Virus record (IMG/VR): IMGVR_UViG_3300042534_000747 | DNA length: 64,000 nt | Strand: one strand, 5' to 3' | Source: a virus | In this document: positions 5,212 through 59,661 of the stretch, one piece after another | Position numbering within the stretch: the stretch's first letter is position 1 | How the letters are laid out: each line of letters starts with the position of its first letter | Program-made: the position numbers and the translations under genes | Notes under the pieces: generated by a model | Database searches by the model: none | Told to the model about the DNA's origin: nothing | The model's input: only the letters and a program-made list of their open reading frames with translations

Positions 5212-5550
5212 TTAAATTTTAAAATTGTTGGAAGTTGATTCTTTTTCATCATCATCAAAGTTTAAAATGATATCTTGATATGAAGGTATTTTTTCATTCT
5301 TGAATGATGAATTTATTTCTTTATTATCTTCATGTAGTTCTAACCATATTACATTTTTTATATGTTCATTTTTATTTTCATCAGAAATAATTACTACACT
5401 TGAAACATAATAAGGATTATTTGGAACTGTTTTTATAAAACCTACAATAACTCCTTTTGAAATAGGTTCAAGTGTAGTTAGACATTTATCATGTTTTTCA
5501 GTTGTTTTTACAATGTTGCCTTTTTCAAATTTTCTTATTTTTTTTATCAT
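5212..5550 (-). CDS. Hypothetical protein, possible SH3/KOW-like beta fold
   Basis: FEKGNIVKT..KGVIVG pattern. Confidence 0.55.
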   Translation of the reverse strand: MIKKIRKFEKGNIVKTTEKHDKCLTTLEPISKGVIVGFIKTVPNNPYYVSSVVIISDENKNEHIKNVIWLELHEDNKEINSSFKNEKIPSYQDIILNFDDDEKESTSNNFKI

Positions 5551-5551
5551 T

Positions 5552-5953
5552 TTAACACCTATAATTTCTAAGCCAATTTTCTAATCCTTCAGATTGAATT
5601 TCATTGAATAATTCTTCATCTTCTAATACATCAATACCTAAACTATAAGCCATTTTAGACCATTCTTTATATGGTTTTTTATTTGCAATTTTTTCTTGTT
5701 TTATTTTTGAAATTGTGGGAAGTAGATTTGTAAGGAATTTGTATAATCCTGTGTAACATTTTGATTCTATGTTCCATTCCCAAACTACGCCTTCAGATGT
5801 ACTATTGCAAGTTCCTGCACAACCTGTAATTACTCTAGTCCAACCTACCATATTGACAATTCTATCATCTTCAAGAATAGCAATCACTCCTATTTCAGAT
5901 TCTTCAAGTTCTTCAGGATAAATAGGTAAACCATATAGTGTTATTGGATTCAT
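5552..5953 (-). CDS. Hypothetical protein
   Basis: Open frame, overlapping start/stop with neighbour. Confidence 0.65.
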   Translation of the reverse strand: MNPITLYGLPIYPEELEESEIGVIAILEDDRIVNMVGWTRVITGCAGTCNSTSEGVVWEWNIESKCYTGLYKFLTNLLPTISKIKQEKIANKKPYKEWSKMAYSLGIDVLEDEELFNEIQSEGLENWLRNYRC

Positions 5954-6330
5954 GTTGCAATCTCTTCAAGTTCTTTTTCATGTTTTATTTTGATGAAAAA
6001 ACCATATTCATTTGATAAAAAATCAGAATAAAGTTTTTCAAATTGGAGAACGTTTTTTGTATGATTTTCTATGAATATTGGATGAACTATTGTTTTGTTT
6101 TTATTCATATAATTTAATAGTTGATTGGTATATTCATCTCTATATTTATTCAAAGATTTGATATTGTTGAAGATATTAAATAATTTGATAAATATGTACC
6201 TTTTACTATCACTTGAAATGCAATTTTCATATTCAGCTTTTAAAGATATGTATGATTGTCTTTCTTCACTCATTTGTCTCAAAATTGTATTATAATTTAC
6301 AATATAATGATTTAGTTCTTCATTTAACAT
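5950..6330 (-). CDS. Helical hypothetical protein, paralog of 6355..6714
   Basis: YTNQLLNYMNKNKTIV vs YGNELLNYINENENLI. Confidence 0.65.
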   Translation of the reverse strand: MLNEELNHYIVNYNTILRQMSEERQSYISLKAEYENCISSDSKRYIFIKLFNIFNNIKSLNKYRDEYTNQLLNYMNKNKTIVHPIFIENHTKNVLQFEKLYSDFLSNEYGFFIKIKHEKELEEIAT

Positions 6331-6354
6331 GTTTTTACCTCATATGTGAGTGTA

Positions 6355-6714
6355 TTAAATAATTCCATAAGTATATAAATATAAATGGTTTTCAGTTATG
6401 AATGAATTATAATCTGCAATTGCTTTATTGATTGTAGTTCTGTATTCTGTTGCAATTGATTCAGGGATTAGATTTTCATTTTCATTTATGTAATTTAGAA
6501 GTTCATTTCCATATTTCAATAGAAATTCGCCTTGATATTTGATAATAGAGTAATCTTTTATGAGAGAATGTATAAGATATCTTGGTGGATTAGTAAGATT
6601 ATAATTTGTTTTATCATGGATTTTTTTGCTTGTTAAAAAATTATTTATAGTGACTGTTATATCATCATTTATTGTATTGAAAATTTTTATATAATAATAT
6701 TCAAATTTGTTCAT
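6355..6714 (-). CDS. Helical hypothetical protein, paralog of 5950..6330
   Basis: Shared LLNYxNxN segment; AAAGGTGA RBS. Confidence 0.65.
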   Translation of the reverse strand: MNKFEYYYIKIFNTINDDITVTINNFLTSKKIHDKTNYNLTNPPRYLIHSLIKDYSIIKYQGEFLLKYGNELLNYINENENLIPESIATEYRTTINKAIADYNSFITENHLYLYTYGII

Positions 6715-6718
6715 TGTT

Positions 6719-7129
6719 TCACCTTTGTGTGTTTATGATTTTTGCAGTTTTGTGAAAAATTGTGTTATTGATTATTTTATTCCATTCTTTGATTGATAGT
6801 GGAAGTTCATGGTTTTTACTGTATAAGAATTTTTCTATTTGTGGATTGTCATAGAGTCCTTTGCATAGAATGTCATAGCTCTTCAAGATGGATTCTTGCC
6901 AATACTCATTAGGGTAATTAGTAAGTCCATAGGCAAATATCAAGGCTACATGCTTGCATCCAGACTTGCCCTTATAGAAATGTATTGTGTTCAGATGATT
7001 GCTTACAATGGCGGATTTTAAGCCAAATGCATACATTACAGCAGGGTTATCAGATTGGTCTACATCTACTTCAGGTGAAATATAGATGTTACAGGTTGAA
7101 CATTCATAATTTTCTAACATTATGAGCAC
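6719..7129 (-). CDS. Hypothetical protein
   Basis: 136-aa open frame. Confidence 0.6.
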   Translation of the reverse strand: MLIMLENYECSTCNIYISPEVDVDQSDNPAVMYAFGLKSAIVSNHLNTIHFYKGKSGCKHVALIFAYGLTNYPNEYWQESILKSYDILCKGLYDNPQIEKFLYSKNHELPLSIKEWNKIINNTIFHKTAKIINTQR

Positions 7130-7623
7130 CTGTAAGTAGATGTTTCAATTTCTTCAGAAATTTGATTTATTTCTTTGATTTTTTCACTTGCAAATATGTT
7201 ATATTTTGCAATGTAGTTTTTTATTATTTCATCAATGTAATAAGTGATGTTATCATAAGCTATATTTTTAAATGATTCTGTAAATGCATAATAAAATTCA
7301 TAAATATTTTCATAATACATGGTTTCATGCATTTTTGCAAGAAGTGAATATTTATCGAATTTAAGATAAATGTAATACAGTTCTGTGCCATCATAGATGA
7401 AATTATTTATTTTTTCATCATAAATTATTTTCAAATTTGCTTTTACAATAATTGTGAATTTTATGTTGTTATGGATGGTTGGAATTTCTTCAATTATTTG
7501 AGTTGTAGTAAAAGATGGTTTACCACATTTTAATAATTCAATTGATTCATCATTTTTTACATAATTCATGAATGCAAGATATGCAGACTGTTCAGGGTTG
7601 AATCTTGGGAATTTTGTTAGCAT
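7120..7623 (-). CDS. Hypothetical protein
   Basis: TAAATG coupling to upstream gene. Confidence 0.65.
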   Translation of the reverse strand: MLTKFPRFNPEQSAYLAFMNYVKNDESIELLKCGKPSFTTTQIIEEIPTIHNNIKFTIIVKANLKIIYDEKINNFIYDGTELYYIYLKFDKYSLLAKMHETMYYENIYEFYYAFTESFKNIAYDNITYYIDEIIKNYIAKYNIFASEKIKEINQISEEIETSTYRCS

Positions 7624-8085
7624 TTATAATCCCTTCTTCCAACATACAGTAAGCATTTGTTTGTTTTTGTGATATTCAGTTTCAAAAGAATCAAGTGTTT
7701 TTTCATTGATATTTTTTTCACTTAATAATTTGTGAGTGTAAATATAATCAAGGTTTTCTGATTCAATTATATGAAGTATTGAAAGTATATTATCCCTTAT
7801 CATTGAAACTATGTTTGGGGGTAGAAGTGAAAGAGTTCCATCTATGAAATCATCTCCATCTCTGAAACTGTATTTTTTTACTTCTGTATAATGAACTTTG
7901 TTTTCTATTCTAATTGTAAAAGTACCTTTATCATTTTTGAAAACAATAAGTGCATCAGCACCATATCTGAATACGTTTATTTCATTGGATTTGAATTTAT
8001 AGCCAATTACTTGAAATTTTTCATCAAATACTTTGCAATCTTCAAAAATGGAAATCATTTTATTTCTGAATTGATGGGTAAACAT
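7624..8085 (-). CDS. Divergent member of the P[YF]W-tail family (ends LTVCWKKGL)
   Basis: QFRNKMISIF, DGT..PNIVSMIRDNILSILHIIE and NLDYIYTH match family blocks. Confidence 0.65.
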   Translation of the reverse strand: MFTHQFRNKMISIFEDCKVFDEKFQVIGYKFKSNEINVFRYGADALIVFKNDKGTFTIRIENKVHYTEVKKYSFRDGDDFIDGTLSLLPPNIVSMIRDNILSILHIIESENLDYIYTHKLLSEKNINEKTLDSFETEYHKNKQMLTVCWKKGL

Positions 8086-8090
8086 TTTTT

Positions 8091-8135
8091 AACACCTACA
8101 AGGTAATAGTAGGTGTTCATAGTATAAATAAGTAT
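8091..8135 (-). promoter_or_regulatory. Cassette promoter with perfect AACACCTAC-N9-GTAGGTGTT dyad
   Basis: 9-bp perfect inverted repeat between TATA and RBS; 8097-8135 is identical (inverted) to 34726-34764. Confidence 0.75.
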
Positions 8136-8143
8136 TGAAAAAA

Positions 8144-8716
8144 TTAACAGAAAAAACCCTTTTTTATAGGGATGATTTCTGTAAAGTTGTAGTTTGAAAT
8201 TGCTTTCATCGTTGTTGTTATATTGCAATTATCGTTATTATGCCAAATTATAGTATTTGGTGATATAAAAGATGGAGTTATTTCTTTTGGTTTATTGATT
8301 ATACTTCTATTTTTAGTTGTTGAATTTGAAGTATAATATTTGGTATCTTTATTGAGAGTTACAGGGGTGTTATTGTATTGTCCTCTATATTTAATTCCAT
8401 TTATATTTATATACCATGTGCATATTTTGATGTATTTTTCCCTTTTTGACATTTGTTTATGTCTTGGGATAGCTAGTGTACTATCTAGCATGGCAGTTAG
8501 TAAATACCAGTCATTTAATTCATTATCTTTCTTTTTTAGAATTAATGAAATATTATATCTTTCCAATATTACTTTGATGGTGTTTACAAAATGATTTTCT
8601 TTAATTAATAATTCAGGCTTTAAATCATTTAGTTTGTATAATATTTCATCTATATCTCTTGCATTTAGACGTTGTTTGAATCTATGAATAGCATGTTCTG
8701 TTATTTCAATGTCCAT
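8144..8716 (-). CDS. Protein with N-terminal RelE/DUF4258-like (HAxxRxxxR) domain
   Basis: IEITEHAIHRFKQR..ISLILKK..WYLLTAM. Confidence 0.45.
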   Translation of the reverse strand: MDIEITEHAIHRFKQRLNARDIDEILYKLNDLKPELLIKENHFVNTIKVILERYNISLILKKKDNELNDWYLLTAMLDSTLAIPRHKQMSKREKYIKICTWYININGIKYRGQYNNTPVTLNKDTKYYTSNSTTKNRSIINKPKEITPSFISPNTIIWHNNDNCNITTTMKAISNYNFTEIIPIKKGFFC

Positions 8717-9217
8717 TTATACATCACCATTGATGAGTATTTTTACATCTTCTAGATTAATGAATTCTTTAAGTCTGTCAAATGTGAATCCATTTTCATA
8801 TTTATAATTCTGTGAAAACTTATTTTTGAAAATACATGCATTGTCCAAATCATAAAGGAAATAATTATATGCTTTTTTTGCAGAAGTGGCATTATATTCA
8901 TTTATTGATGTTATTAGAGTTTTATAGACAAAATCATCTCTATATGCTATTCGAGTTCCAAAAGGCATTAATTTGTTTTTGTTTACCATTGTTAAATTAA
9001 GATGGAATGTTTCATTGAGGTCTTTTAAGAAAATTTTATCAGGCAATGTCATTAAAGGTGTGAGTAGATTTGTTGTTAGATTAAGAAGGCAATATTTATC
9101 AGCAGCAGGAGTTGGATTTGATTCTTGCAAAAATTTATATTCATAATGGTTGTTTGAAAGAATGTCTCCTACTTGAATGGGTGTTTTTTCAGGTGAAAAA
9201 TATTCATTAAGATTCAT
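8717..9217 (-). CDS. Hypothetical protein
   Basis: Open frame coupled to neighbours. Confidence 0.65.
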   Translation of the reverse strand: MNLNEYFSPEKTPIQVGDILSNNHYEYKFLQESNPTPAADKYCLLNLTTNLLTPLMTLPDKIFLKDLNETFHLNLTMVNKNKLMPFGTRIAYRDDFVYKTLITSINEYNATSAKKAYNYFLYDLDNACIFKNKFSQNYKYENGFTFDRLKEFINLEDVKILINGDV

Positions 9218-9223
9218 TGTTCA

Positions 9224-9652
9224 TCACATCCAGTAGGGTTTTACTTTTTTATCAAGTGTTACATTATTCATAAATTTAATTAAGTCAGGATTTGGTTCTT
9301 TTTTGGATTTTGGGATGAAATAATAAAATGTTTTTTCATAACTAAGATGTGAAGTTTCAATTTCATTAATTACATTGAGAATTGTAGATTTAATTTCTTT
9401 TTTCATACTCTTTTTAATGTTTTTTGGTGTTCCTTCTACAGCTAATAAGCCTTCACGATACCAATATACAATCATATCAAGAGTTTTACCATTGAAAGCT
9501 ATTCCACAACTCATTTTTTCTGTTATTACAGCAATTTGATATTCATCAAAACACATTGCAATTTCAATTGTGCATTTTCCTTCAGTGGTTGAGTATTCAA
9601 TTTCTGTATAATCATTTGTTACTAATTTTGCCATTTGGTTTTTAAATTTCAT
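9224..9652 (-). CDS. P[YF]W-tail family protein (ends KPYWM)
   Basis: C-terminal motif and shared internal blocks. Confidence 0.75.
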   Translation of the reverse strand: MKFKNQMAKLVTNDYTEIEYSTTEGKCTIEIAMCFDEYQIAVITEKMSCGIAFNGKTLDMIVYWYREGLLAVEGTPKNIKKSMKKEIKSTILNVINEIETSHLSYEKTFYYFIPKSKKEPNPDLIKFMNNVTLDKKVKPYWM

Positions 9653-9653
9653 G

Positions 9654-9693
9654 TTAATTACTCCAATAAGGGATTATTTCAATTTTTATTCAT
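9654..9693 (-). pseudogene. Deletion scar of a P[YF]W-family gene (IIPYWSN* remnant)
   Basis: 9658-9681 is identical to 12505-12528, the 3' end of gene 12501..13118. Confidence 0.65.
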
Positions 9694-10109
9694 CATATCC
9701 AGTAGGGTTTTTCAGTATTGATTTCTTTATAGTTGTTTATATGAGTGGAATTTAAGCCATATAGAGCATCATGAAGGTCTGTTGATGATACAGTGTATGT
9801 ATTGTAGTCATTTTCAACTGAACTTATAATGGAAAGTATGTTTAGTTCAATTTTTGTGATTAGTTCATTTTTCAATTGGGTTGAATTTCCAGCAGCATTA
9901 TTTTTTGAATCTTCATACCAATATTGCATTATTTCAATATCTTTAGTTGAAAATTGAATACCATATGTTGTGTTATTTGATTTTGCAATAATAGATATTG
10001 AATATGGAAATTTATTAATTTTTAAACTTGTGTTTTCAGATTTGTATAAGCAAGCTTCACTTTTGTCATATTCAATTAATTTTCTAAGTTGTTCTTTAAA
10101 TTCATTCAT
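9693..10109 (-). CDS. P[YF]W-tail family protein (ends KPYWI)
   Basis: C-terminal motif and shared blocks. Confidence 0.75.
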   Translation of the reverse strand: MNEFKEQLRKLIEYDKSEACLYKSENTSLKINKFPYSISIIAKSNNTTYGIQFSTKDIEIMQYWYEDSKNNAAGNSTQLKNELITKIELNILSIISSVENDYNTYTVSSTDLHDALYGLNSTHINNYKEINTEKPYWI

Positions 10110-10114
10110 TGTTT

Positions 10115-10555
10115 TTACATCCAGTAGGGTTTAAGGTTATCTTCTTCTTCTTTAAAATCTTCTACAAATTTTTGTAAATGTATCTCGTCTGCTTCATCAT
10201 AATTAAATCTATAAAAATAATTGAATGTTGCATCATAGTATAGGTGCTTATTTTCAATTGCATTGAGGGTTTTTAAAATTGATTTTTTAATATGGTTTAT
10301 TACGGACTTTTTAAGATGTTCTTTACTGCCTTTGACTTCAATAGAAGTATGGTTAAACCAATATTTTGTTATTGTTTTAGTTTCGATATCAATTTCAACA
10401 CCATAATATATTGAATTGATTTTGGCATTAACTACAAAATTGATTGGATATTTAAGAATTTCAAAGCTGTAATCATCATAAGTAGTTTCATAATAAATGT
10501 GCTCATATCTATCATTTTCAATGAGTTTTAGCATTTGTTTTTTAAAATTTTTCAT
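10115..10555 (-). CDS. P[YF]W-tail family protein (ends KPYWM)
   Basis: C-terminal motif; own TATA upstream. Confidence 0.75.
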   Translation of the reverse strand: MKNFKKQMLKLIENDRYEHIYYETTYDDYSFEILKYPINFVVNAKINSIYYGVEIDIETKTITKYWFNHTSIEVKGSKEHLKKSVINHIKKSILKTLNAIENKHLYYDATFNYFYRFNYDEADEIHLQKFVEDFKEEEDNLKPYWM

Positions 10556-10627
10556 TTTTTACCTCATGTGTGAGTAATACAATATATGGTTATTCTAATA
10601 TTTAAATGTTTGTTAAAAAAGAAAAAA

Positions 10628-11086
10628 TTAATGGGATTCTATGGAGGTAATTGATTCATTTATTACATTTATAGAATTTTCAATATCATGTTTTTGTATT
10701 AAAAGTTTTTTTACTATGTCTTTTTTTACATTTTTTATGATATATTCAGTTGTTAAAAGATTGGCATGTGCATGATTTTCTACAAATATATTTTTTGAAT
10801 TATTGATTCTATAACTGAGTGAATATTCTCTAATTCCATTTGAATAGAATTCTTTTGTTTCAAAATTATATTTGTATGCAATTACCGATTCTATTAAAAT
10901 ATCGACAGACATATTACCGAATTGTTCAGTAAAAGTTATCATATTTTCATACATATACAATTGTTTTTTAAAGCCATTTATGAGAAAACTTAAAGTAAAT
11001 GAACTTATATGTTTATTTGCAATTTTTTCTTTTACAATTTTATCATAATCGCTATTTTCAAGTATTTCTTTAATTTCTGAATTCAT
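10628..11086 (-). CDS. Hypothetical protein, N-terminus like the P[YF]W family but without the tail
   Basis: MNSEIKEILENSDYD; TTGTAGGTGA leader and dyad. Confidence 0.7.
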   Translation of the reverse strand: MNSEIKEILENSDYDKIVKEKIANKHISSFTLSFLINGFKKQLYMYENMITFTEQFGNMSVDILIESVIAYKYNFETKEFYSNGIREYSLSYRINNSKNIFVENHAHANLLTTEYIIKNVKKDIVKKLLIQKHDIENSINVINESITSIESH

Positions 11087-11164
11087 TGTAATTCACCTAC
11101 AATGAAGTAGTAGGGTGTTATTGTATTTAAGTGTTTGTTAAAAAAAGGAAATTAAAAAGGTTGT

Positions 11165-11608
11165 TTAAATTACCCAATAAGGAATTATTGTGCTATGTTT
11201 TATTATGGAATTAGAATATGCTTGCATTGTGTTTTTAGTATCTTGATTGATGTCATTTGAACTAGAATATTCTAAAATAGTATCAACTATTTTGTTAACG
11301 TTAAGTCCATGAGTATCTATAAGATTTTTTGTATCAAGGATTATTTTTTCAATGAGAGAAATAATTTCAGGATTAATTAATGAAGGGTTTCCTTCAGCGT
11401 GAATAGGGTATTTTTGGCATTCTACTCTGATGTATTCAAGATTGTTTGACCAAATACTTACATAACATTTGTTTTCTTCAATTATTTCAATTGATTTGAA
11501 TGATGGAGAAAAATGTAATGTTTTAAATTGAAGAGAGGGATTTTCATTTATGAAGTATGTATGACTTTCTGACATTTTGTTAAATAAATTTATAATTTCT
11601 GAATTCAT
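11165..11608 (-). CDS. P[YF]W-tail family protein (ends IIPYWVI)
   Basis: C-terminal motif; EGNPSLINPEII block. Confidence 0.75.
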   Translation of the reverse strand: MNSEIINLFNKMSESHTYFINENPSLQFKTLHFSPSFKSIEIIEENKCYVSIWSNNLEYIRVECQKYPIHAEGNPSLINPEIISLIEKIILDTKNLIDTHGLNVNKIVDTILEYSSSNDINQDTKNTMQAYSNSIIKHSTIIPYWVI

Positions 11609-11679
11609 TTTGATTACCTGTAAGGTAGTAGTAGGTGTTTATGATATATAAATGATTGTAAAAAAAAGAATGAATGAAA

Positions 11680-11979
11680 TTAATATCCATAATAAATAAG
11701 TATCATTAAAAATATTAATGCAGATATTATGAAATTAATTAAATCAAAATTTGAAGATGGTATGTTATTTTCTGGTTTATTTTCTTTAGATTTAATTAAC
11801 ATAGCATTGTATGAAAAATCCATTCCTACTAATATGATATTTATTAGCATATAAATTGAAACAAGGATAATTGTAATTATTGGTAATATTTTAAAAGTAA
11901 AATTATTTATTAATATTACAAATGAAAAGATTATCAATATCAATGTTATTACTTGATTAAATGTTTTATAATAATTCAT
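11680..11979 (-). CDS. Small 3-TM membrane protein
   Basis: Hydrophobicity pattern. Confidence 0.65.
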   Translation of the reverse strand: MNYYKTFNQVITLILIIFSFVILINNFTFKILPIITIILVSIYMLINIILVGMDFSYNAMLIKSKENKPENNIPSSNFDLINFIISALIFLMILIYYGY

Positions 11980-12082
11980 TTTTTATACCTATTTTTATAT
12001 TGCCAATATAATGATATTATGTTAAAGTATTTAAGTATATTGATAAAAAGGAAATTATAATGTTTCATAATGGTATAAAAAA

Positions 12083-12499
12083 TTAAATCCAGAAAGGTGT
12101 TAGCTTTCCAGATTCTTTGAAGGATGATTCAAGGGTTTGGAGGTCTGTTTTGTTATTGAATCCATTTGCAAATTCAAGGGAGTGTTCATAATTGAGTGGT
12201 TCTTTTTCAATATGGTTGATTATTGAAAGGATTGACTTTTTAATCACTTTTAGGGATTTAGGATTATAGCATTCTGGTGAGCCAGTACCATTATATTCTA
12301 ATGTAGATATATCAAATGTTATTGTAATACCTGCTTCAGTGAACATTTCAAATGTTGTTTTTTCATTTGAAAATTTCCACATTGGATTATCATGTATATC
12401 ATAAACTCTCATATTATATTTTTTATCTTCAGATTGATAAGATATATCATCATATGGAGATTTTGATATGATGTCTGATATAATTTCATCAAATTTCAT
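12083..12499 (-). CDS. P[YF]W-tail family protein (ends LTPFWI)
   Basis: C-terminal motif and shared blocks. Confidence 0.75.
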   Translation of the reverse strand: MKFDEIISDIISKSPYDDISYQSEDKKYNMRVYDIHDNPMWKFSNEKTTFEMFTEAGITITFDISTLEYNGTGSPECYNPKSLKVIKKSILSIINHIEKEPLNYEHSLEFANGFNNKTDLQTLESSFKESGKLTPFWI

Positions 12500-12500
12500 T

Positions 12501-13118
12501 TTACTTACTCCAATAAGGGATTATTTCATTAATTTTTTTGTCATTGAGCATTGTTTCAATTTCTGAAATTTTGTCATTGATTATGGCATTGTCTTGTGAA
12601 TTATGAATAATGATAGCACGTTTTAAAGTTTTTACATGATGCATTATTGTTTCATCTTCAGGTACAATATCATTAAGCATTGATTCTATTACAGATTCAT
12701 ATTTTCTTATTAGTTCAGTATCAATTGATTTTTGAATATATACACATCTAGCTAAAAGACTAATTTTTGACATTATGGTTCTAATTGATACTATTCCATT
12801 TATATCTATGAGATTTTTAAATTCTGTAATTTTATCAAGTACATAATAATAAATTTCATCTGTGGTGAAGCATGTACTTCCTTCATAATATTTTCCATCT
12901 TTTATATAACGAATTTTTTGCACTTCATTGTTATGTATTAGTATTTCACATCCATAATCAGATTCATTATCAGCCATTTCAAAGCTAACCCAATCATTTT
13001 CTTGACCTGATACATAAGTGCTAAACCAACATTCATTGAAGCCTTTAATGTAATAGTGATAGCTTTCTTTTGTTATATTTGCAAGAGCTATAATTTCATC
13101 TAGTTTTTTATCATTCAT
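12501..13118 (-). CDS. P[YF]W-tail family protein, longer form (ends IIPYWSK)
   Basis: C-terminal motif; YYEGS block. Confidence 0.75.
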   Translation of the reverse strand: MNDKKLDEIIALANITKESYHYYIKGFNECWFSTYVSGQENDWVSFEMADNESDYGCEILIHNNEVQKIRYIKDGKYYEGSTCFTTDEIYYYVLDKITEFKNLIDINGIVSIRTIMSKISLLARCVYIQKSIDTELIRKYESVIESMLNDIVPEDETIMHHVKTLKRAIIIHNSQDNAIINDKISEIETMLNDKKINEIIPYWSK

Positions 13119-13122
13119 TTAA

Positions 13123-13560
13123 TCAAATCCAGAAGGGTATTAAACAATTATGTTTTTTGTATGTTTCTTCAAGTTCAAGAATTTTATCTGGTTGTTGATA
13201 AGCTTTTAGATATTCATATGTATGTGCAAAGTCAAGATTATTATTTGGATTTTCAAATATTTCAATTACTTCTAAGATTGAATTGATAATTTTTTCAATG
13301 TATTCAGGTTTAAAAGCATTCATAGTTCCTTCACTGCAATATGTTGACCAATCACAGTATTCAAAATTTTGCAATTCTCTATTTTTAATTGATACTGCAT
13401 ATTTTATTTTATCAATTTGCACTTCAATACGTGAATTATAACTAAATCGTATGTAGTAATCTTGATTCAATATTTTATAAGAAATGTAGTCATATTTTGA
13501 TTTTTCAAGTATGTTCAATATTCTTGTTTTGAATTGTTCAATGTTCATTATTTCACCCAA
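13123..13560 (-). CDS. P[YF]W-tail family protein (ends LIPFWI)
   Basis: C-terminal motif; SEGTMNAFKPEYI block. Confidence 0.75.
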   Translation of the reverse strand: MGEIMNIEQFKTRILNILEKSKYDYISYKILNQDYYIRFSYNSRIEVQIDKIKYAVSIKNRELQNFEYCDWSTYCSEGTMNAFKPEYIEKIINSILEVIEIFENPNNNLDFAHTYEYLKAYQQPDKILELEETYKKHNCLIPFWI

Positions 13561-14066
13561 TAAGGAATTATTTTTTTGTTAAGGTTTATATCATCAATTA
13601 GTGATTCTAATGTTTTTGAAAGTTTGTTATAATTTACAATTTGGCATTCTGTAAATTCATTAGTAATATTATTAATTTTGTTCCATGCAATAGTATAATT
13701 TATATCTGACATATCATGATTGATTCTTTTAAGAGTTTTACTAATGTTAATTTCTTCAGATTCAATGTTTAAAGTGGTTTTGATGATTGTTTCCATTATT
13801 TCTTTAATTACTATGGGATTACAAATATTATAATCACCTTCAAAATAAATATCATTTTGAATTATTCTTGCAATTGTAAAATTATTGTCTTTCATGTTTA
13901 AGGAACAATTTAATTCATTTGTTTTATCAACAATTTCAATGTATTTGGTATTGTCTTTAGAATAAGTTCCATAATAGATACCTGAATTTGAGTAATAATT
14001 GTATTCTGCATCTGTTTTGTCAAAAAGGTCACGTATTTTAGATTTTATTTCATTCATTAATTTCAC
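13548..14066 (-). CDS. P[YF]W-tail family protein (ends IIPYWVK)
   Basis: C-terminal motif; YFEGDYNICNPIVI block. Confidence 0.75.
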   Translation of the reverse strand: MKLMNEIKSKIRDLFDKTDAEYNYYSNSGIYYGTYSKDNTKYIEIVDKTNELNCSLNMKDNNFTIARIIQNDIYFEGDYNICNPIVIKEIMETIIKTTLNIESEEINISKTLKRINHDMSDINYTIAWNKINNITNEFTECQIVNYNKLSKTLESLIDDINLNKKIIPYWVK

Positions 14067-14109
14067 CTAAATGAGTATTTTACATTACAATAAATGGTAA
14101 GTATAGTAT

Positions 14110-14301
14110 TTAAATGTTTGCTAAATTTATACGTTCAAAATTATATTTGATTATATGGGATGTTCCTATGATAAATAAGTAAATGTATAAACATATAATT
14201 CCTAAATCTGTATTATTTGCCATTATTTGTGCAAGACCAATCAATCCTATTATAAATCCTATTAATTCATAAAAAAATAAAATAATTGTATATGTTTTCA
14301 T
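14110..14301 (-). CDS. Small 2-TM membrane protein
   Basis: Two hydrophobic segments. Confidence 0.6.
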   Translation of the reverse strand: MKTYTIILFFYELIGFIIGLIGLAQIMANNTDLGIICLYIYLFIIGTSHIIKYNFERINLANI

Positions 14302-14306
14302 TATTT

Positions 14307-14624
14307 TTACCTGTAATTTATAAAAACAAGTGTTATTGAATTTATTATGAATATAGTAAATGCAATTGTAAACTTTATTGAATCTTCAACTGTATAATTT
14401 AAATTTATATTTTTTATACTTTTTTGAGTATATTTTTTCATTAGACTATAATACAAAATTTCATCTGCTTTATACAAATACCATAATCCATAAATTAGAA
14501 AAATAATACTTGCAATTAAATGTATGTTAAAAGATATTTCGGTAACAAAATATCCTGCTATAAATGAAGATAAAAAATAAAATATTGCAGTTAAATGTTC
14601 TATAATTATTTTTTTAATATCCAT
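14307..14624 (-). CDS. Small 3-TM membrane protein
   Basis: Hydrophobicity pattern. Confidence 0.65.
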   Translation of the reverse strand: MDIKKIIIEHLTAIFYFLSSFIAGYFVTEISFNIHLIASIIFLIYGLWYLYKADEILYYSLMKKYTQKSIKNINLNYTVEDSIKFTIAFTIFIINSITLVFINYR

Positions 14625-14933
14625 TTAAATCACCATTAAAATGGTTAATATTGTAATTGATATGAAGCTAATTATTGCTAAAATTAATGTAATATAATCA
14701 TATAGTTGGCATTCTATGTTTATATCTTCAGTTTTTGATTTTTTATTAATTTCAATTGATTCTCTGAAGAAATAAAGAGATGCAAATATACATGCAAGCA
14801 AGGGTAGTAGAATGAATATTGAAGAATTATGTATGTAAATGTTAATGTATTCTATGACAGTTAGCATAAATAATGCAGAAATTAGTTTAGTTATTATTAT
14901 TTTATTCATTTTGTTCACCTGATAATGTTTCAA
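14625..14933 (-). CDS. Small 3-TM membrane protein (start probably at the MNK coupled to the upstream stop)
   Basis: Hydrophobicity pattern. Confidence 0.65.
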   Translation of the reverse strand: MKHYQVNKMNKIIITKLISALFMLTVIEYINIYIHNSSIFILLPLLACIFASLYFFRESIEINKKSKTEDINIECQLYDYITLILAIISFISITILTILMVI

Positions 14934-15147
14934 TTATATGTTTAGCAATTTGATTAGCTAATTTATCATAGATTTTTTGAGCTTGCTTTGAAGAGATTAA
15001 ATTTGAAAGTATCAATGTGTGGACTGCTTTTCTTTTATGTTCAATATCATCAATAAATTCATTTTTGTAATTCAAGTTAAGTTCATCCAATTGTTTTGAT
15101 AGTTTTGGAGAAAAATAGCCCATGTTTATACTGATTGTTTGTTCCAA
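14902..15147 (-). CDS. Small helical hypothetical protein
   Basis: Open frame in operon; ISINMGYFSPKLSKQL. Confidence 0.65.
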   Translation of the reverse strand: MEQTISINMGYFSPKLSKQLDELNLNYKNEFIDDIEHKRKAVHTLILSNLISSKQAQKIYDKLANQIAKHIIETLSGEQNE

Positions 15148-15152
15148 TTAAA

Positions 15153-15470
15153 TCATCCCATTATTAGAATTTTTATAAATACTAATCCAAATACAAATAT
15201 TATAGAAAATATGTATAAAATTGTTGTAGATTTATCTACTTTAATATCTTTAATTTCATAAGTTTCATCTAATTCAGCGTTCTTTTGTTCATATTTTATA
15301 TTAATATAACATATAATTGCTATAATTGCATATATTAATGAACTAAGGAAAAACAAAAATGGAATTAACAAATAAATATGTTCATTTTCAAATAAATCAT
15401 TTGATAAATAAGTACATATAAATAAATTTAATGAAAGCATTAAAGAAATTTTAAATAGACTGTTTTTCAT
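15153..15470 (-). CDS. Small 3-TM membrane protein
   Basis: Hydrophobicity pattern; own TATA. Confidence 0.65.
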   Translation of the reverse strand: MKNSLFKISLMLSLNLFICTYLSNDLFENEHIYLLIPFLFFLSSLIYAIIAIICYINIKYEQKNAELDETYEIKDIKVDKSTTILYIFSIIFVFGLVFIKILIMG

Positions 15471-15542
15471 TTATCATTACCTCATAAATTATATGTAATG
15501 GATGGTGTTGATAATATTTAAGTGTTTGGTAAAAAAGAAAAG

Positions 15543-15953
15543 TTAATTAAATGCTTCTTTATCAAGGAAAGATTTAATTTTCAAAGTTGAAATTAAATAT
15601 AATGGGAATAATATGTATACAATAATTATGTATGTAAGTGAAAATAATATTAACATTGTTAATATGAATATTCCACCAATAAGACATGATGTAATTGCCA
15701 CTTTTAAAAAATGTAATAGAATTTCAGATTTTATATATGGAGAAGTGGAATTTACAAAAATTGGTAATATTTCACCTTTTGTAATAAATAATCCTGTTAT
15801 AAATACAATAAGAGTAGTTATTATTTGATATTGTATTAGTCTTACTAATTTTTCAGGTAAAATAAAGATTTTTGAAATTAGCAATTTTATTATATCTCTA
15901 TTTGTTGGATTTGTTTTATTTAATTGTTTGCAACACCATGATTTGAAGGACAT
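15543..15953 (-). CDS. Membrane protein
   Basis: Two long hydrophobic segments; ACGGTGA RBS. Confidence 0.65.
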   Translation of the reverse strand: MSFKSWCCKQLNKTNPTNRDIIKLLISKIFILPEKLVRLIQYQIITTLIVFITGLFITKGEILPIFVNSTSPYIKSEILLHFLKVAITSCLIGGIFILTMLILFSLTYIIIVYILFPLYLISTLKIKSFLDKEAFN

Positions 15954-15966
15954 TTTATCACCGTTT

Positions 15967-16233
15967 TCAAAGTATTATAAAAACTATGTATAATGCTATA
16001 ATTGTTACAATAAAATCATTAAATAGTATAACAAGAGTGATTGTTCTGTTTACACGTTTAACATCTGTTAATTTTATTAAATTCATTAAATTGAGTATGA
16101 AACATGAGCCATATAAGAAAATAAATACATACATCATTATTTGAAAAGATTGCAACATTATTGCTGATTTTATAGTTATTGCTAAATACGCAATTGTTGA
16201 AAATACACTTAAATATATAGAATCGAATTTCAT
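15967..16233 (-). CDS. Small 3-TM membrane protein
   Basis: Hydrophobicity pattern; own TATA. Confidence 0.65.
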   Translation of the reverse strand: MKFDSIYLSVFSTIAYLAITIKSAIMLQSFQIMMYVFIFLYGSCFILNLMNLIKLTDVKRVNRTITLVILFNDFIVTIIALYIVFIIL

Positions 16234-16285
16234 AATATAATTGATGTTCTTTATAATATTTAAATGTTTGTGAAAAAAGGAAAAA

Positions 16286-16633
16286 TTAAATTAATTTAAT
16301 TAAAAATAGTGATAATGTTAATAGTCCAACTGACGTTAATAAAATTGTTATATCTCCTTTTATTATATTTATAGGTATTTCATTACACAATATAAGGGTT
16401 ATTGCAAAAATATTGAATAGAACTCCTAATAAATATAATGAAGATAGGAATATGATAACTAAATTATTTGTATAAAAAATATATGCCATTTTTATTAATG
16501 ACATGTAAATAAAAATATTGAAAATGTATAGATATTCTTTTTTGATTATATTATTGTAATTCATGAATTGCTCATAAAGATATATAATTATATATAAATA
16601 TATGCTTTTAGAAAATATCTTTGTTATCAACAA
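16286..16633 (-). CDS. Small membrane protein (true start likely downstream)
   Basis: Hydrophobic C-terminal two thirds. Confidence 0.5.
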   Translation of the reverse strand: MLITKIFSKSIYLYIIIYLYEQFMNYNNIIKKEYLYIFNIFIYMSLIKMAYIFYTNNLVIIFLSSLYLLGVLFNIFAITLILCNEIPINIIKGDITILLTSVGLLTLSLFLIKLI

Positions 16634-17258
16634 TATCCATTATTTTTGTTGGGTAATTATTCCAATTTATAATAGTTGCATTTGGTTTATATTTGTTTAT
16701 CCAGTCAAATAATTTATTTATTTGAGCAGTGGTTAATCTTCTATTAAATCCCCATGTAAGATAAAACCATTCACCATGTGATAATTTCATCCATCCTAGA
16801 CTTTCAATTGTCATTTCAGAATCATCTAATTTTATAATACCTTCAATATTTATTAATTCATCTAATATTTCATTTGCTAATGCTCTATGTTGCATTTTAT
16901 CACAAATGTAAACAACACCTGAAGGAGATACCCATGCATTATTAGAATTTGATGAAAAATTATTGTCAATAATGAATTCTACATTTTTATTCATTATATC
17001 ATTATAGTTATATGCAAGTTTTTTACCTAGATATGTTTCTACATTTTTCTTTAAAATATTAAATTCGATATTTGCATTTATCATATCTTTTATTGAAATT
17101 AATTCTTTAATGAATTCAATTTGATTTATGAAATCACTAGATAAAAGTGAACCATCTCTTAAATTTGGTTTTTCAACTAAAATATTTGCATAACTCATAA
17201 CTGATACATTTTCATCTAGTAAATCATCGATAAACATTATAATTTCTTCTTTTGTCAT
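16608..17258 (-). CDS. Hypothetical protein with WVSPSG..H..LGWMK motif
   Basis: Pattern recalled from uncharacterised phage proteins; TGTAGGT leader. Confidence 0.65.
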   Translation of the reverse strand: MTKEEIIMFIDDLLDENVSVMSYANILVEKPNLRDGSLLSSDFINQIEFIKELISIKDMINANIEFNILKKNVETYLGKKLAYNYNDIMNKNVEFIIDNNFSSNSNNAWVSPSGVVYICDKMQHRALANEILDELINIEGIIKLDDSEMTIESLGWMKLSHGEWFYLTWGFNRRLTTAQINKLFDWINKYKPNATIINWNNYPTKIMDIVDNKDIF

Positions 17259-23525: not shown

Positions 23526-23735
23526 TCATTTTTTCACATCTTTGTATTTTAAAAATTTACTAAATAAATTATCTTCAGAATTAATTATCATGAAATCAAA
23601 TTCAGGATTTTGTTCAATAATTTCATCCATTAAAGCAATTTTATTTCTTGTTATTTCTGGTTTGAAAACATCATTAATATGTTCTTGTATTTTTGAATTT
23701 TTTATAAATTCCATGATTTTATCCATAGTATTCAC
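23526..23735 (-). CDS. Hypothetical protein (start probably MDKIM, TTGTAGGTGA leader)
   Basis: Promoter nearly identical to that at 11092-11150. Confidence 0.65.
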   Translation of the reverse strand: MNTMDKIMEFIKNSKIQEHINDVFKPEITRNKIALMDEIIEQNPEFDFMIINSEDNLFSKFLKYKDVKK

Positions 23736-23781
23736 CTACAATGAAGTAGTAGGGTTTCAAAGTATTTAAGTGTTTGTTAAA

Positions 23782-32997: not shown

Positions 32998-33189
32998 AAA
33001 TAATTATTTAATTTTTTTGAGATGGTCTTTTTCTGTTTGGATTTATTGTTGCAGGTTTTCTTTTACGAATTATATTTGTATTGATGGAAAAATGTGTATC
33101 AATCTCTGTGGGTTTTATTAGTTGAATCTGCATAGGTATAATAATGTATTTTATTATATATAAGTGTATGTTAAAAAAAGAAAAATGGG

Positions 33190-44377: not shown

Positions 44378-44527
44378 TTATTTTTTCATTTTTTTCTTCA
44401 TTTTTGCAATTTTACTAATATTTGATTTATTGTGTTTTCTACCTATAATTTTAAATTTTCTTAATTTTTGAGATATATTAAGTGAACTAATTGATGTTTT
44501 TGACATAATTTTAACCTATGATTTTAG

Positions 44528-44611
44528 TGCGAAGGGTGTGATTTGAACACACGAATCCCTACGGAACAAGATTTTAAGTCTTGCGCATTTGACCAACTCT
44601 GCTACCCTCGC
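44528..44611 (-). tRNA. trnL: tRNA-Leu(TAA), long variable arm, CCA not encoded
   Basis: GCGAGGG acceptor, CAAGA-CT-TAA-AA-TCTTG, TGTTCAAATCA. Confidence 0.93.
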
Positions 44612-44639
44612 ATTGTGATTATCATTCAAGACATGATGC

Positions 44640-44941
44640 TTGAACAATACTATACATATGCTTTATAGTATAAATAGTTAACTGATAATTGAATAAATGA
44701 AAGTTATTCCTATAGACTATGGGTACTATAAGCTAGCTATATATAGGCTTTTTTCTAATAATGATTTTTTAAGAATCAGTATCTAGTGACTTATTTTAAT
44801 GATTATTATAGAATCTATTATTTAGAATGTTCACAATGTGATTCAATGACAATGGGAATCATTAGAAAAAATATAAAAAAGATAACTGTTTTTCACACAC
44901 CTATTTACTGATGGTGAAAAAACAGATTTAGTTGTCAGTAG
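44640..44941. repeat. Copy B of the ~310 bp tRNA-associated non-coding module
   Basis: Collinear identical blocks with 17758-18071. Confidence 0.9.
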
Positions 44942-44947
44942 GCATTA

Positions 44948-46561
44948 TTATTCAGATTTATCATCATTTAATAATTTTTTGAATTTTTCTCTTCTTTTAT
45001 GCACTAATTCAACCATCTGATTTACTCTTCTACAAGCATTTTCATACTCAACATCTATTTTAGCTTCTTCTCTTTGTTTTTCTGCTTTTTGTACAAGTGT
45101 TTCACCTTCTTCAATCTTTTTACCTATTCTTTTAAGATTATCCATTTCTTTTCTAATTTTAGTCATTTCTGAATCTTGATATGTAATAATTATATTCACT
45201 GTAAATTGCAATAATGGTAAACATTTATCAAAATAAAAATCTATTAACTTTATTTGCCACGGTATAAAATAGGCATCTTCCATTGCAGTTACTTTATGAC
45301 CCATCATATATTTTACATAATTTGGAGTATCTGTATTATTCATAAGAGTACTACCAAAATAAGCTCTCATTTTATGAGAACGTAAATCATTCCATTCATA
45401 TTCTTTTTTCAATTGACCTGTTTTTGCTGCCAATTTTTTATACATATGCATCATGCCATCCTGTGACATTTTTCTATATTTTTCATTTCTATCTTTTAAA
45501 AATTTTGCAGGTATTACAGTATTTACAAATAAAGATATATTTTTTGTTGAATCTTCATCAACTATATCTATATCATATCTTCTTTTTTGATATGCAACAT
45601 AACTATGATTTCCTTCATGTTGTCTAGGAGATGGAGTATTTCTATAAATTAAATATTTATCAATTGCTTCAACAGCTTCAGGACTGAAAAATGTAATGAA
45701 TTTTTTATTTGATTTTTTAGTTTTTTCTCTTAATAAAAATAACATACATATTGTTACATCAATTTCTTTTTCAGTTCCATCATCATTAATTACAGTTCTT
45801 TTAATTGTTTTTTTACTATTTTCATAATCATATATTGATAAATTACGTAAATCAATACCTGATATTCCTGAAGATGTTTGAGCTAAAATTACAGCTTTTT
45901 CTAAATAATCTGTATATTCTAATATGTCAATCATTTCATCTCTTGTATAGATATATTCATGTTTTGTCAATGATTCCCTATTTGGCAAATTTTTAATTAT
46001 TTTTTTAGGAAAAATTATACCAAAATGCTCATAAAATGATTTGATAGCTGATATTTTAGATATAATTGTATTAGGTGCAAATTCACGATGTTCAATTACA
46101 TTTTCATGTTTATCAGTTATATCATATCCCACATTTATTAATGCATCATAATAAGCTTCTATTCTTGCAACTGATAATTGCATTCTTGAAACTGGTAAAT
46201 TTGCTTTTAAATTAGCAACATTATTTTCATCAGTTAAAGCTTCTTTTATTAATTGTTCAGGTGTAATTTTATGGGTTAAACAGAATTGAACTATAGCTTC
46301 AAATTGTATATTAATTGTATTTTTTGGTTTATTTTTGAAAAAATCTTGTAAAACATAATTTTCTTTTAACACATCTCTATCAAGAGTGGTATCATTTTCA
46401 TCTTCAGGGTCAGGCACAAAATCCATATCTGTATTTAATATTTTCTCAAATAATGTAGTAGTTGTAGTTGCGCTAGGTTTATGATTAATGAATTTGTTTC
46501 TGTTCTTTTTGCTATTAGCTTTAGTTCTAAGGTTAGAATCATCTGACAAATAATCACCCAT
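44948..46561 (-). CDS. Tyrosine recombinase/integrase
   Basis: N-terminal SAM-like PNTIISKISAIKSFY; LRSHKMRAYF, MMGH, DAYF catalytic motifs. Confidence 0.9.
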   Translation of the reverse strand: MGDYLSDDSNLRTKANSKKNRNKFINHKPSATTTTTLFEKILNTDMDFVPDPEDENDTTLDRDVLKENYVLQDFFKNKPKNTINIQFEAIVQFCLTHKITPEQLIKEALTDENNVANLKANLPVSRMQLSVARIEAYYDALINVGYDITDKHENVIEHREFAPNTIISKISAIKSFYEHFGIIFPKKIIKNLPNRESLTKHEYIYTRDEMIDILEYTDYLEKAVILAQTSSGISGIDLRNLSIYDYENSKKTIKRTVINDDGTEKEIDVTICMLFLLREKTKKSNKKFITFFSPEAVEAIDKYLIYRNTPSPRQHEGNHSYVAYQKRRYDIDIVDEDSTKNISLFVNTVIPAKFLKDRNEKYRKMSQDGMMHMYKKLAAKTGQLKKEYEWNDLRSHKMRAYFGSTLMNNTDTPNYVKYMMGHKVTAMEDAYFIPWQIKLIDFYFDKCLPLLQFTVNIIITYQDSEMTKIRKEMDNLKRIGKKIEEGETLVQKAEKQREEAKIDVEYENACRRVNQMVELVHKRREKFKKLLNDDKSE

Positions 46562-55896: not shown

Positions 55897-56553
55897 TTAT
55901 GTAAACACTGTATTAATGTAATTTTCAAAAGTTTTTGAATTATCAACATTGTATTTTTTATTCAAATAATTCATCATTTCTTTAGATAAATCATCATTTT
56001 TATCTTTTGCTGCCTTATCATCAGATAATTGAAATATGTAAACTAATGGATTTTCATGCATAACTTTAGTTAATTCGTGTGTTGTATATTCACCATATTC
56101 AACAAATTCAGTTGTGAAGTAAATACCCATATGATATTTAATTATTTCTTTTTCTTCATCTGTTAATTTGATAAATCTTTCTAAAATCTCAATACTATAT
56201 TTTCCATGACCTGAATTCAATTCTTTTGAATTGTAAGAGTATGTACCCATATATTCATCATACAAATTAGCTTTGCATATATCATGTAATAAACCACAGA
56301 TGATAATGGTATCTTTAAAAATATATCTGCCAAAATTGTACAATTTACAAAATTGATTAAATTCCCAATATACTTTATAATGATGAATTAATAAACCATG
56401 AAGTCTACTGTTATGAAATTTTGTACTAGCAGGTGCAGAAAAATAATTAGTTTTAGTTTTTATATATTCAATTAAATCTGACATCCCTTCTCTACATACA
56501 GATTCAAGTAGAGTTAAAACTTCAGCTTCTATTATTTTAATATCACAATACAT
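55897..56553 (-). CDS. HD-domain phosphohydrolase
   Basis: APASTKFH..GLLIH, GLLHDICK, GHG..S, IIKYHMG, final D. Confidence 0.88.
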   Translation of the reverse strand: MYCDIKIIEAEVLTLLESVCREGMSDLIEYIKTKTNYFSAPASTKFHNSRLHGLLIHHYKVYWEFNQFCKLYNFGRYIFKDTIIICGLLHDICKANLYDEYMGTYSYNSKELNSGHGKYSIEILERFIKLTDEEKEIIKYHMGIYFTTEFVEYGEYTTHELTKVMHENPLVYIFQLSDDKAAKDKNDDLSKEMMNYLNKKYNVDNSKTFENYINTVFT

Positions 56554-59079: not shown

Positions 59080-59661
59080 TTAATCAAGACATACATAAGA
59101 ATCAATATTTGCTAACTTATTAAAAAAATTAAGTCTAGCATTACTATCGCCATTCATGAGTGTATATTTCACTTTATGAAAATCAAAAATTGATTTCATT
59201 TTTTCAAACATTAAATCTGAATCTTTAGCTTCGCCAAATCGTGTACCATCTTTTATAAAATCATGAACACGTTCTAGTAAAATGATTTCATCATATCTAT
59301 TAATCTCTTTTAAAAATTCATGATACATTGATGTTAAAACTGCAATATCATGTGAATCATAAATATCAATTTTATCCATGATATAAAAATATGATAAAAA
59401 TGTAGGTGAATCAGTCACCATTACATTTATTGCATCAGGGATAATATCTTCTTTATGTTTTTGATGATTTAGTACTCTAAATTGGTCTGAAGGGTCACGA
59501 ACTGACCATCCGTAATTAAATTCTTCTCTTATCCATTCTTGTACAAGCTCTACACTAATGTTATTTTCTTTGCAAAGTGTGAATATACCTGCTGCAAATG
59601 CAGATTTACCAGAGCATGAACCACCTGTTACAGCAATTTTATACATTTTATTTACATCCAC
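59080..59661 (-). CDS. AAA_28/NadR-type P-loop kinase
   Basis: IAVTGGSCSGKS, ELVQEWIRE, VTDSP. Confidence 0.85.
   Translation of the reverse strand: MDVNKMYKIAVTGGSCSGKSAFAAGIFTLCKENNISVELVQEWIREEFNYGWSVRDPSDQFRVLNHQKHKEDIIPDAINVMVTDSPTFLSYFYIMDKIDIYDSHDIAVLTSMYHEFLKEINRYDEIILLERVHDFIKDGTRFGEAKDSDLMFEKMKSIFDFHKVKYTLMNGDSNARLNFFNKLANIDSYVCLD

Follow-up and report, generated by a model that had tools for sequence, protein, structure and literature searches.

What are the ten open reading frames (ORFs) that follow one another at positions 7624-14066 of the virus record IMGVR_UViG_3300042534_000747, and why do so many of their proteins end in the same three residues? The stretch of DNA analysed here, referred to below as the window, is 64 kb long. 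According to its ORF list all ten ORFs lie on the minus strand, and a preliminary description had seen in them a tandem family of highly diverged proteins that keeps a C-terminal P[YF]W motif. This was borne out: all of the ORFs and C-terminal endings that it had listed are present, and eight of the proteins can be linked by hidden Markov models (HMMs). The interpretation that we favour, and to which we give about an even chance, is that of a lineage-specific tandem multigene family with a constant scaffold, a variable face and a latch-like tail, the proteins being putative binding modules. Within 6.4 kb the array holds eight firm members, one probable member, one doubtful ORF and one deletion scar. 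These are given below in the direction of transcription, with the E-values at which leave-one-out HMMs recovered the eight firm members; the E-value of the probable member is that of the best HMM match outside this core.

13548-14066, minus strand: family member with tail IIPYWVK, E 4.5e-9; first gene of a four-gene unit
13123-13548, minus strand: family member with tail LIPFWI, E 1.3e-19
12501-13118, minus strand: probable member of 205 aa with tail IIPYWSK, E 0.096 (domain 0.0047)
12083-12499, minus strand: family member with tail LTPFWI, E 1.5e-17; last gene of its unit, followed by a T-run and by no coupled gene
11165-11608, minus strand: family member with tail IIPYWVI, E 2.3e-12; stands alone with its own promoter and oligo-T terminator
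10628-11086, minus strand: doubtful, degenerate ORF without a tail, recovered neither by HMM nor by hhalign
10115-10555, minus strand: family member with tail KPYWM, E 6.7e-24; first gene of the unit from 10555 to 8144, and the protein modelled with AlphaFold2 (AF2)
9693-10109, minus strand: family member with tail KPYWI, E 1.1e-14
9654-9692, minus strand: deletion scar of a lost member, in which ATGAAT is followed by the last 11 codons, out of frame (KIEIIPYWSN, stop)
9224-9652, minus strand: family member with tail KPYWM, E 3.1e-17
7624-8085, minus strand: family member with degenerate tail LTVCWKKGL, E 2.4e-9; first gene of the unit from 8085 to 5212

The 203 ORFs of at least 50 aa in the window served as the background set for the homology searches. 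Against this background the leave-one-out HMMs recovered eight of the ten proteins at E-values from 2e-9 to 7e-24 and gave no match outside the array. Pairwise phmmer searches joined the identical eight, which make up the largest paralog family of the window. By these comparisons the homology of the eight members is beyond chance, even though MAFFT alignments give a pairwise identity of just 11-32% within the family. The alignment consensus (MxxFKxxIxxLxExxxYxxIxY ... EG ... IxxIxxxILxxINxIE ... PYW) reproduces the N-terminal helix, the EG turn and the amphipathic IxxxILxxIxxIE helix that had been noticed earlier, with little identity elsewhere. The members are stand-alone proteins of 138-205 aa and are soluble, with grand average of hydropathy (GRAVY) values of -0.26 to -0.73 and isoelectric points (pI) of 4.9-8.6. 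Two of the gene starts need adjustment: the likely start of 13548-14066 is the ATG at 14057 (169 aa), which is preceded by AGGTGA, and the next gene, whose ORF spans 13123-13560, probably begins at the ATG at 13548, which overlaps the upstream stop codon (TAATG).

The two remaining ORFs differ in how far they can be tied to the family. The 205-aa protein of 12501-13118 is the best HMM match outside the core eight, with the marginal E-value given above, and its hhalign match covers residues 8-82. It has the N-terminal helix and six strands of the family followed by an enlarged helical C-terminal half, which appears to hold a second copy of the helix 2 motif. We conclude that it is probably a family member because it combines the PYW tail, a place in the four-gene unit, the same order of secondary structure and this apparent repeat. 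The ORF at 10628-11086 shares its promoter, leader and first codons with 11165-11608, the two forming a duplication unit of ∼522 nt (repeat families D2, D3 and D5); past its first 15 residues neither the leave-one-out HMM nor hhalign found any recognisable homology. HMM and hhalign searches gave no family signal for 8717-9217, 8144-8716, 7120-7623, 6719-7129, 16608-17258 and other neighbours. Inside the operon headed by 7624-8085 lies an adjacent pair of paralogs, 5950-6330 and 6355-6714 (both minus strand; phmmer E<1e-3), for which there was no Pfam or PHROG match.

The tail is confined to the array. P[YF]W occurs within the last eight residues of eight of the 203 ORFs, and all eight are array members. 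The corresponding DNA word, CCYTWYTGG, has ten sites in the window (1.2 expected). Nine of these belong to the array, and the remaining one falls inside a small ORF that is unrelated. The conserved C-terminal pattern is [ILV]-x-P-[YF]-W, with one, two or four residues after the Trp; four are found in 7624-8085, in which Cys replaces the Tyr/Phe.

Is this tail conserved as a peptide or as DNA? At the tight junctions between genes, the Trp codon and the letters after it read GGGTGA, GGAG or GGATGTGAT and lie 5-10 nt before the next ATG. The junctions are far more alike than the genes, with 26 nt at 92% and 47 nt at 87% identity as against 49-54% for the genes overall. Repeat analysis found the 15-nt word CATCCAGTAGGGTTT at 9227 and 10118 and 14 nt of it at 9697 (repeat family D4), in agreement with the earlier statement that the tail is also conserved as DNA. 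The C-ending codons of the tail are indeed unusual for this genome, as had been stated: in the window CCC accounts for 6% of Pro codons and TAC for 16% of Tyr codons, whereas CCA makes up 44% of Pro codons. For the Pro of the tail, four of the eight cases use CCC and the other four CCT, never CCA, and both Phe codons are the rarer TTC, which amounts to a preference for pyrimidines at the third position of the tail codons of 9224-14066. A possible reading of these facts is that the tail is kept for nucleic-acid reasons, i.e. the TGG and the following codons would provide the coupled gene with a GG-rich ribosome-binding site, the peptide itself being a by-product. The deletion scar fits this reading, as it retains exactly such a part. 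However, 12083-12499 and 11165-11608, which close their transcription units with T-runs and have no coupled gene, still keep P[YF]W; the exchanges between Tyr and Phe (TAC, TAT or TTC) and between CCC and CCT, before a constant TGG, preserve the peptide and not the DNA; and the Pro and Tyr/Phe codons add nothing to a ribosome-binding site. Since the motif is kept in genes without a downstream gene and the peptide is preserved across differing codons, the constraint on the tail acts on the protein, and the ribosome-binding site is only an added layer at some junctions. A pure by-product was therefore rejected, and we consider a primarily nucleic-acid explanation very improbable. Both layers constrain the tail, with the peptide primary.

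The array also records duplication and loss. The scar, which lies in a gap of 40 nt (9654-9692), still holds a ninth P[YF]W tail, and its GGAG acts as the ribosome-binding site of 9224-9652; the part that survives is thus the portion that holds the GGAG of the next gene. In repeat D6, 9644-9690 matches 12491-12537 over 47 nt at 87% identity, and the matching segment, which covers the MKF start of the next gene too, is the junction at which 12501-13118 meets 12083-12499. The resemblance of the scar to this junction indicates that multi-gene units were duplicated and that one copy was later deleted. Read from the sequence in this way, the array shows birth-and-death dynamics, typical of arms-race families.

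We modeled the protein of 10115-10555 with AF2, using the ten-sequence family alignment as input. The model had a mean predicted local distance difference test score (pLDDT) of 88.1 and a predicted template modelling score (pTM) of 0.86, and the five models ranged in pLDDT from 84.8 to 88.1. It predicts a helix at residues 2-13, six strands over residues 19-76, helices at 83-102, 107-117 and 124-134, and then the tail. The model of the 205-aa member (12501-13118) reached a pLDDT of 52.8 and is usable for secondary-structure order only (helix, six strands, long helix), and an ESM Atlas model of a family protein was poor (pLDDT 0.48) and gave no fold lead. Along the predicted strands the alignment columns alternate between conserved hydrophobic positions (e.g. 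22, 51, 53, 55 and 65) and positions of near-maximal entropy; I89, I93, L94 and I100 of helix 2, together with G76 and W145, are nearly or fully invariant. These column statistics fit a two-layer sandwich in which, according to the model, the buried positions of the sheet are kept and those that face outward vary almost at random.

Structure comparison pointed to polo boxes, although below the level at which a relationship could be claimed. The best VIA-align matches (Z 5.7-6.0) were all polo boxes, as were the top 12 rows of a second-look search. The best of these was polo box 3 (PB3) of PLK4 (5lhz_B), which aligned with 74 of 76 residues, over model residues 18-100, at Z 6.0 and a root mean square deviation of 3.0 Å; this lies below the stated noise line of the program (∼Z 8), and neither the wide nor the second-look search returned anything at Z 8 or above. 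Foldseek searches of PDB and BFVD gave nothing at E≤1e-3 (best E 0.033 and 0.032, respectively), and no member matched the Pfam polo-box profile PF00659 at E up to 1. Polo boxes are eukaryotic protein-binding modules. Those matched (PLK4 PB3 in 5lhz and 5lhx, the polo-box domains of Cdc5 and Plk1/2, and the cryptic polo box of Plk4) share with the model a six-stranded antiparallel meander with one helix across it, but their sequence identity to the family is 5-10%, and the family lacks a kinase and has additional N- and C-terminal helices and the tail. We therefore describe the predicted core as polo-box-like in topology without assigning it to the polo-box family; convergence towards a simple topology is the most likely explanation of the resemblance. 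Two other proteins share the order of helix, antiparallel sheet and helices at noise level, namely VC0508 from the VSP-II island of Vibrio cholerae (2w56; Z 5.5 over 100 residues, 3.6 Å), which to our knowledge has no known function, and p32/C1QBP (1p32; Z 3.9-4.0). The latter is a strongly acidic protein that forms a trimeric ring, in contrast to the pI range of the family proteins.

The best Foldseek row in PDB was TriTu, the immunity protein of an Rhs toxin (7zhm_C), and TipC2 appeared at Z 3.7, which raises the question of whether the array encodes immunity to the toxins of a polymorphic toxin system. Tandem arrays of diverged genes for small soluble immunity proteins are typical of such systems, and the array is likewise made of tandem, diverged, small soluble paralogs. 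The TriTu and TipC2 fold matches are themselves noise-level, however. Pfam and PHROGs found no toxin, Rhs, LXG or nuclease domain in the neighbours at 5212-9217 and 16608-17258, and several members have strong promoters of their own and do not trail a toxin gene. Immunity to a toxin is therefore a highly improbable role for the array.

The model bears most directly on the tail. The preliminary description had proposed variable substrate-binding bodies with an exposed C-terminal peptide that docks all of them onto one partner. Read in ten-residue blocks, the pLDDT of the 10115-10555 protein runs through 96, 88, 78, 67 and 74 and then reaches 86 over residues 141-146. L-K-P-Y-W-M, the C-terminal six residues, thus has a mean of ∼86 after a linker at 67-74, and DSSP assigns beta bridges at 135-136 and 140-141. 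Dangling terminal peptides normally lie well below a pLDDT of 60, and free linear motifs below 50-60. The rebound past a floppier linker indicates that the model sets L-K-P-Y-W-M against the ordered body. Furthermore, hydrophobic residues occupy four of the six tail positions in the family as a whole, an arrangement ill suited to a soluble protein whose tail stayed exposed at all times. The tail is therefore predicted to pack onto the protein body, probably, instead of hanging free; the packing may also be between subunits of an oligomer, or may represent the resting state of a releasable motif. Of the earlier proposal, the idea of one scaffold with a variable surface agrees with the alternating strand columns, and the exposed docking peptide does not agree with the tail as modelled. 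The preliminary description had also set burial of the PYW against an exposed tail; the model leans toward burial, and the second model, that of the 205-aa member, was too poor to replicate this.

It is nevertheless possible, if unlikely, that an exposed tail docks all of the paralogs on one hub while the bodies bring differing cargo or activities. The best candidate for such a hub would be the sliding clamp, because the spacing of the tail resembles the core of the proliferating cell nuclear antigen-interacting peptide (PIP) box. Archaeal PIP boxes are usually C-terminal, and eight of the nine family tails share with clamp-binding tails both this position and the spacing of a hydrophobic residue three positions before an aromatic pair. 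The linker before the tail is of lower confidence and, as shown by alignment gaps, of variable length; a PIP-type motif tolerates a variable number of residues after the Trp; and, as the copies whose tail is degenerate or absent demonstrate, a body without the motif is possible. On the other hand, the PIP consensus Q-x-x-[ILM]-x-x-[FY]-[FYW] is not matched, as the Gln position holds E, D, H, S, I, H, N or K, i.e. the glutamine is missing in all members. The family motif has a conserved proline, which is atypical inside a PIP motif, the tail is predicted to be ordered with a beta bridge at 140-141, and no other protein of the window carries it. The probability that the family tail works like a PIP box is low. 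We consider it improbable that P[YF]W is a new hub-docking motif (e.g. a clamp-binding tail without Gln and with Pro) that links nine effector bodies to one machine of the host or the element. Were this so, the array would be an adaptor arsenal without a described counterpart in archaeal viruses, and the modelled intramolecular docking would be its autoinhibited resting state.

Other kinds of C-terminal recognition were rejected on register. Recognition of hydrophobic-tyrosine-any residue (HbYX), PDZ-type and single-stranded DNA-binding protein (SSB)-tip-type tails requires a fixed register to the C-terminal carboxylate, the HbYX motif forming the final three residues of its protein. In the family the Tyr/Phe is the third to fourth residue from the end and the Trp is followed by one or two residues (four in 7624-8085). 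Docking to the proteasome in the manner of an HbYX tail, one form that the protease partner suggested in the preliminary description could take, fails for this reason, and PDZ-type and SSB-tip-type recognition fail on the same variable register.

The members are arranged in five transcription units, which start at 14066, 11608, 11086, 10555 and 8085. Four of the five begin with a common promoter word of the B recognition element (BRE)/TATA type or a close variant of it, and the promoter of the fifth, at 8085, is a looser match that carries a palindrome. The main promoter features are as follows.

14107-14123, minus strand: BRE/TATA-type promoter TAGCAAACATTTAAATA, which serves the unit from 14066 to 12083
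11094-11140, minus strand: promoter TAACAAACACTTAAATA with the palindrome CCTACTA-N7-GTAGGTG, which covers the ribosome-binding site of 10628-11086 and the point where transcription is expected to begin
10599-10615, minus strand: promoter TAACAAACATTTAAATA, which serves the unit starting at 10555
8086-8143, minus strand: promoter and leader with a palindrome (8093-8113), which serves the unit starting at 8085; repeat family D1

The promoter word TAACAAACAYTTAAATA, a BRE followed by a TATA-like element, has 11 sites in the window, as against 0.8 expected. Apart from those at 33157 and 48799, they lie between 3961 and 24195 on the minus strand. Ten of the 11 are on the minus strand and stand upstream of the P[YF]W units, of genes for small membrane proteins and of ORFs 17258, 23735 and 24141, and promoters of this class also drive several other minus-strand cassettes between 3.9 and 24.2 kb. 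Their distribution suggests that they mark one co-regulated, perhaps temporal, class of genes. Across the window, TTTAWATA is found within 80 nt upstream of 28 of 98 ORFs (6.6% expected), with a peak 30-50 nt before the start, and motifs of the GGTG/GGAG type precede 36 of 98 starts (∼7% expected). Together with TAACAAACAYTTAAATA, these statistics fit BRE/TATA promoters of the archaeal kind, combined with short leaders and Shine-Dalgarno sites. Three of the units carry the palindrome CACCTAC-N7-GTAGGTG, in imperfect form at 11608; it extends over both the ribosome-binding site and the point at which transcription is expected to start. A perfect palindrome, CCTACTA-N7-GTAGGTG, occurs at 8093-8113, 11094-11114 and 23733-23753 on the minus strand (three found, none expected), in each case between the TATA box and the start codon and with the 3' arm serving as the ribosome-binding site. 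The palindrome could act either as an operator where transcription starts or as a hairpin in the leader.

Directly upstream of the array, at 14110-16633 on the minus strand, are seven consecutive small ORFs (63-136 aa) that look like membrane proteins with two to four passes. Several of them have promoters of the TAACAAACAYTTAAATA class, and one, 16286-16633, is a paralog of 2510-2773. The promoter class that the array shares with this block (14.1-16.6 kb), together with the short tag common to the ends of soluble proteins that have otherwise diverged, would be compatible with the tail being an address label, i.e. a signal for packaging or export into particles or vesicles and delivery to the next cell, like capsid-targeting or secretion tags. 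We know of no archaeal tag of the form P[YF]W, which counts against this explanation; the term 'PYW motif' does not occur in the literature searched, the tail is predicted to be ordered and not free, and the array itself offers no context of structural genes. An address label is quite improbable on this evidence.

The family has no relatives in the databases searched. In Pfam, PHROGs, NCBIfam and PADLOC the members gave only scattered sub-threshold hits, each to a single member. One of these was HEPN_RES_NTD1 (PF18870), which matched residues 1-75 of the 13548-14066 protein with 17 bits against a threshold of 27.4 (E 6e-4 to 7e-3); it was rejected as probably a chance hit because it is below the gathering score and absent from the other nine members. 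A profile search of PDB sequences found nothing at E up to 1. A search with the family profile against 1.84 billion representatives (∼15 billion proteins) returned only the ten proteins of the window and two repeat proteins, P0011 (Ala/Asp-rich) and P0012 (Thr/Ser-rich), which are spurious, with summed repeat scores and no P[YF]W. The database records of the family sit on a contig of 202,507 bp and, as the proteins of this contig are in the searched database, there is no further copy on the rest of it. A word-indexed search of 5.8e9 clusters found self-hits only, and none of 50,697 phage records was matched by the array in blastn.

Taken with the evidence above, the favoured interpretation is as follows. 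The array would be a lineage-specific multigene family that evolves through duplication and loss, with each gene encoding a small soluble cytoplasmic protein with a predicted two-layer alpha/beta domain. This domain would consist of an N-terminal helix, a six-stranded antiparallel meander and a long amphipathic helix on one face of the sheet (the polo-box-like beta6-alpha core), followed by two more helices. The constant scaffold would comprise the EG turn, helices 1 and 2, the buried face of the sheet and the terminal [ILV]-x-P-[YF]-W; on it, divergence has made the solvent-exposed face of the sheet and the C-terminal helices almost random in sequence. The tail would most likely be a hydrophobic latch that folds back on the domain or on a neighbouring subunit and so closes the fold, a free docking peptide being less likely. 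The genes would be expressed from one common class of strong BRE/TATA promoters. By analogy, we infer that the proteins may form a set of differently specific binding modules directed against host or competitor targets. The anti-defence or host-takeover role suggested in the preliminary description is putative. The array is thus most likely a birth-and-death multigene family of binding modules under one common archaeal-type promoter class.

An orphan family of this kind is of a familiar sort, i.e. a viral lineage-specific tandem multigene family. Such families are known from large DNA viruses and include the multigene families (MGF) of African swine fever virus (ASFV), the poxvirus host-range families and the paralogs at the genome ends of rudiviruses and lipothrixviruses, among them anti-CRISPRs of the AcrID1 type. 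They share with the array tandem paralogs on the same strand, a retained scaffold with extreme sequence divergence, turnover of copies by gain and loss, and a lack of cellular homologues. They differ in that they have no sequence relation or clear fold relation to the present family, which comes from one contig only.

Several points weigh against the favoured interpretation. The packing of the tail rests on the pLDDT and DSSP assignment of one model, which was built from an alignment of only 9-10 sequences, and the tail of the 205-aa member is below a pLDDT of 50, in a model that is poor throughout. As the fold matches are below the noise line, 'polo-box-like' may denote merely a common topology. 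Part of the DNA conservation of the tail is at the nucleotide level, with the rare CCC and TAC common to three members and the junctions of 26-47 nt conserved. No orthologues were found, and a role in host interaction is proposed by analogy only.

The giant archaeal virus-like elements are annotated almost wholly as 'hypothetical protein', and the family, with its confident predicted fold, sharp terminal motif and clear record of duplication and loss, offers a tractable entry point to the way in which such elements deal with their hosts. If the tail is a latch, it would provide a clean natural case of a constant scaffold with a hypervariable binding face; if it is a docking motif, it would reveal a hub that the element targets. 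As it comes from a single contig, the present value of the family is that of a well-defined candidate, not of a result.

The wider setting of the array is as follows. The window has 21-29% G+C throughout, carries five tRNA genes and also encodes a tyrosine integrase adjoining a tRNA-Leu gene, a serine resolvase, and PKD and transglutaminase proteins. The source is probably an archaeal, AT-rich virus-like element of roughly 200 kb. The integrase (537 aa) lies upstream of a complete tRNA-Leu(UAA) gene at 44527-46561 on the minus strand; the 3' half of this tRNA gene had no exact match in 185,579 reference genomes, and hence no host attachment site was found. Toward the other end of the window, the products of 52913-53662, 55897-56553, 59080-59661 and 59648-60421 resemble, respectively, a Thg1-like tRNA-His guanylyltransferase (E 1.5e-33, with no relative in IMG/VR), an HD-domain protein, an AAA_28 kinase-like protein and a thymidylate synthase (ThyA-like), which make up a set of genes for nucleotide and tRNA metabolism.

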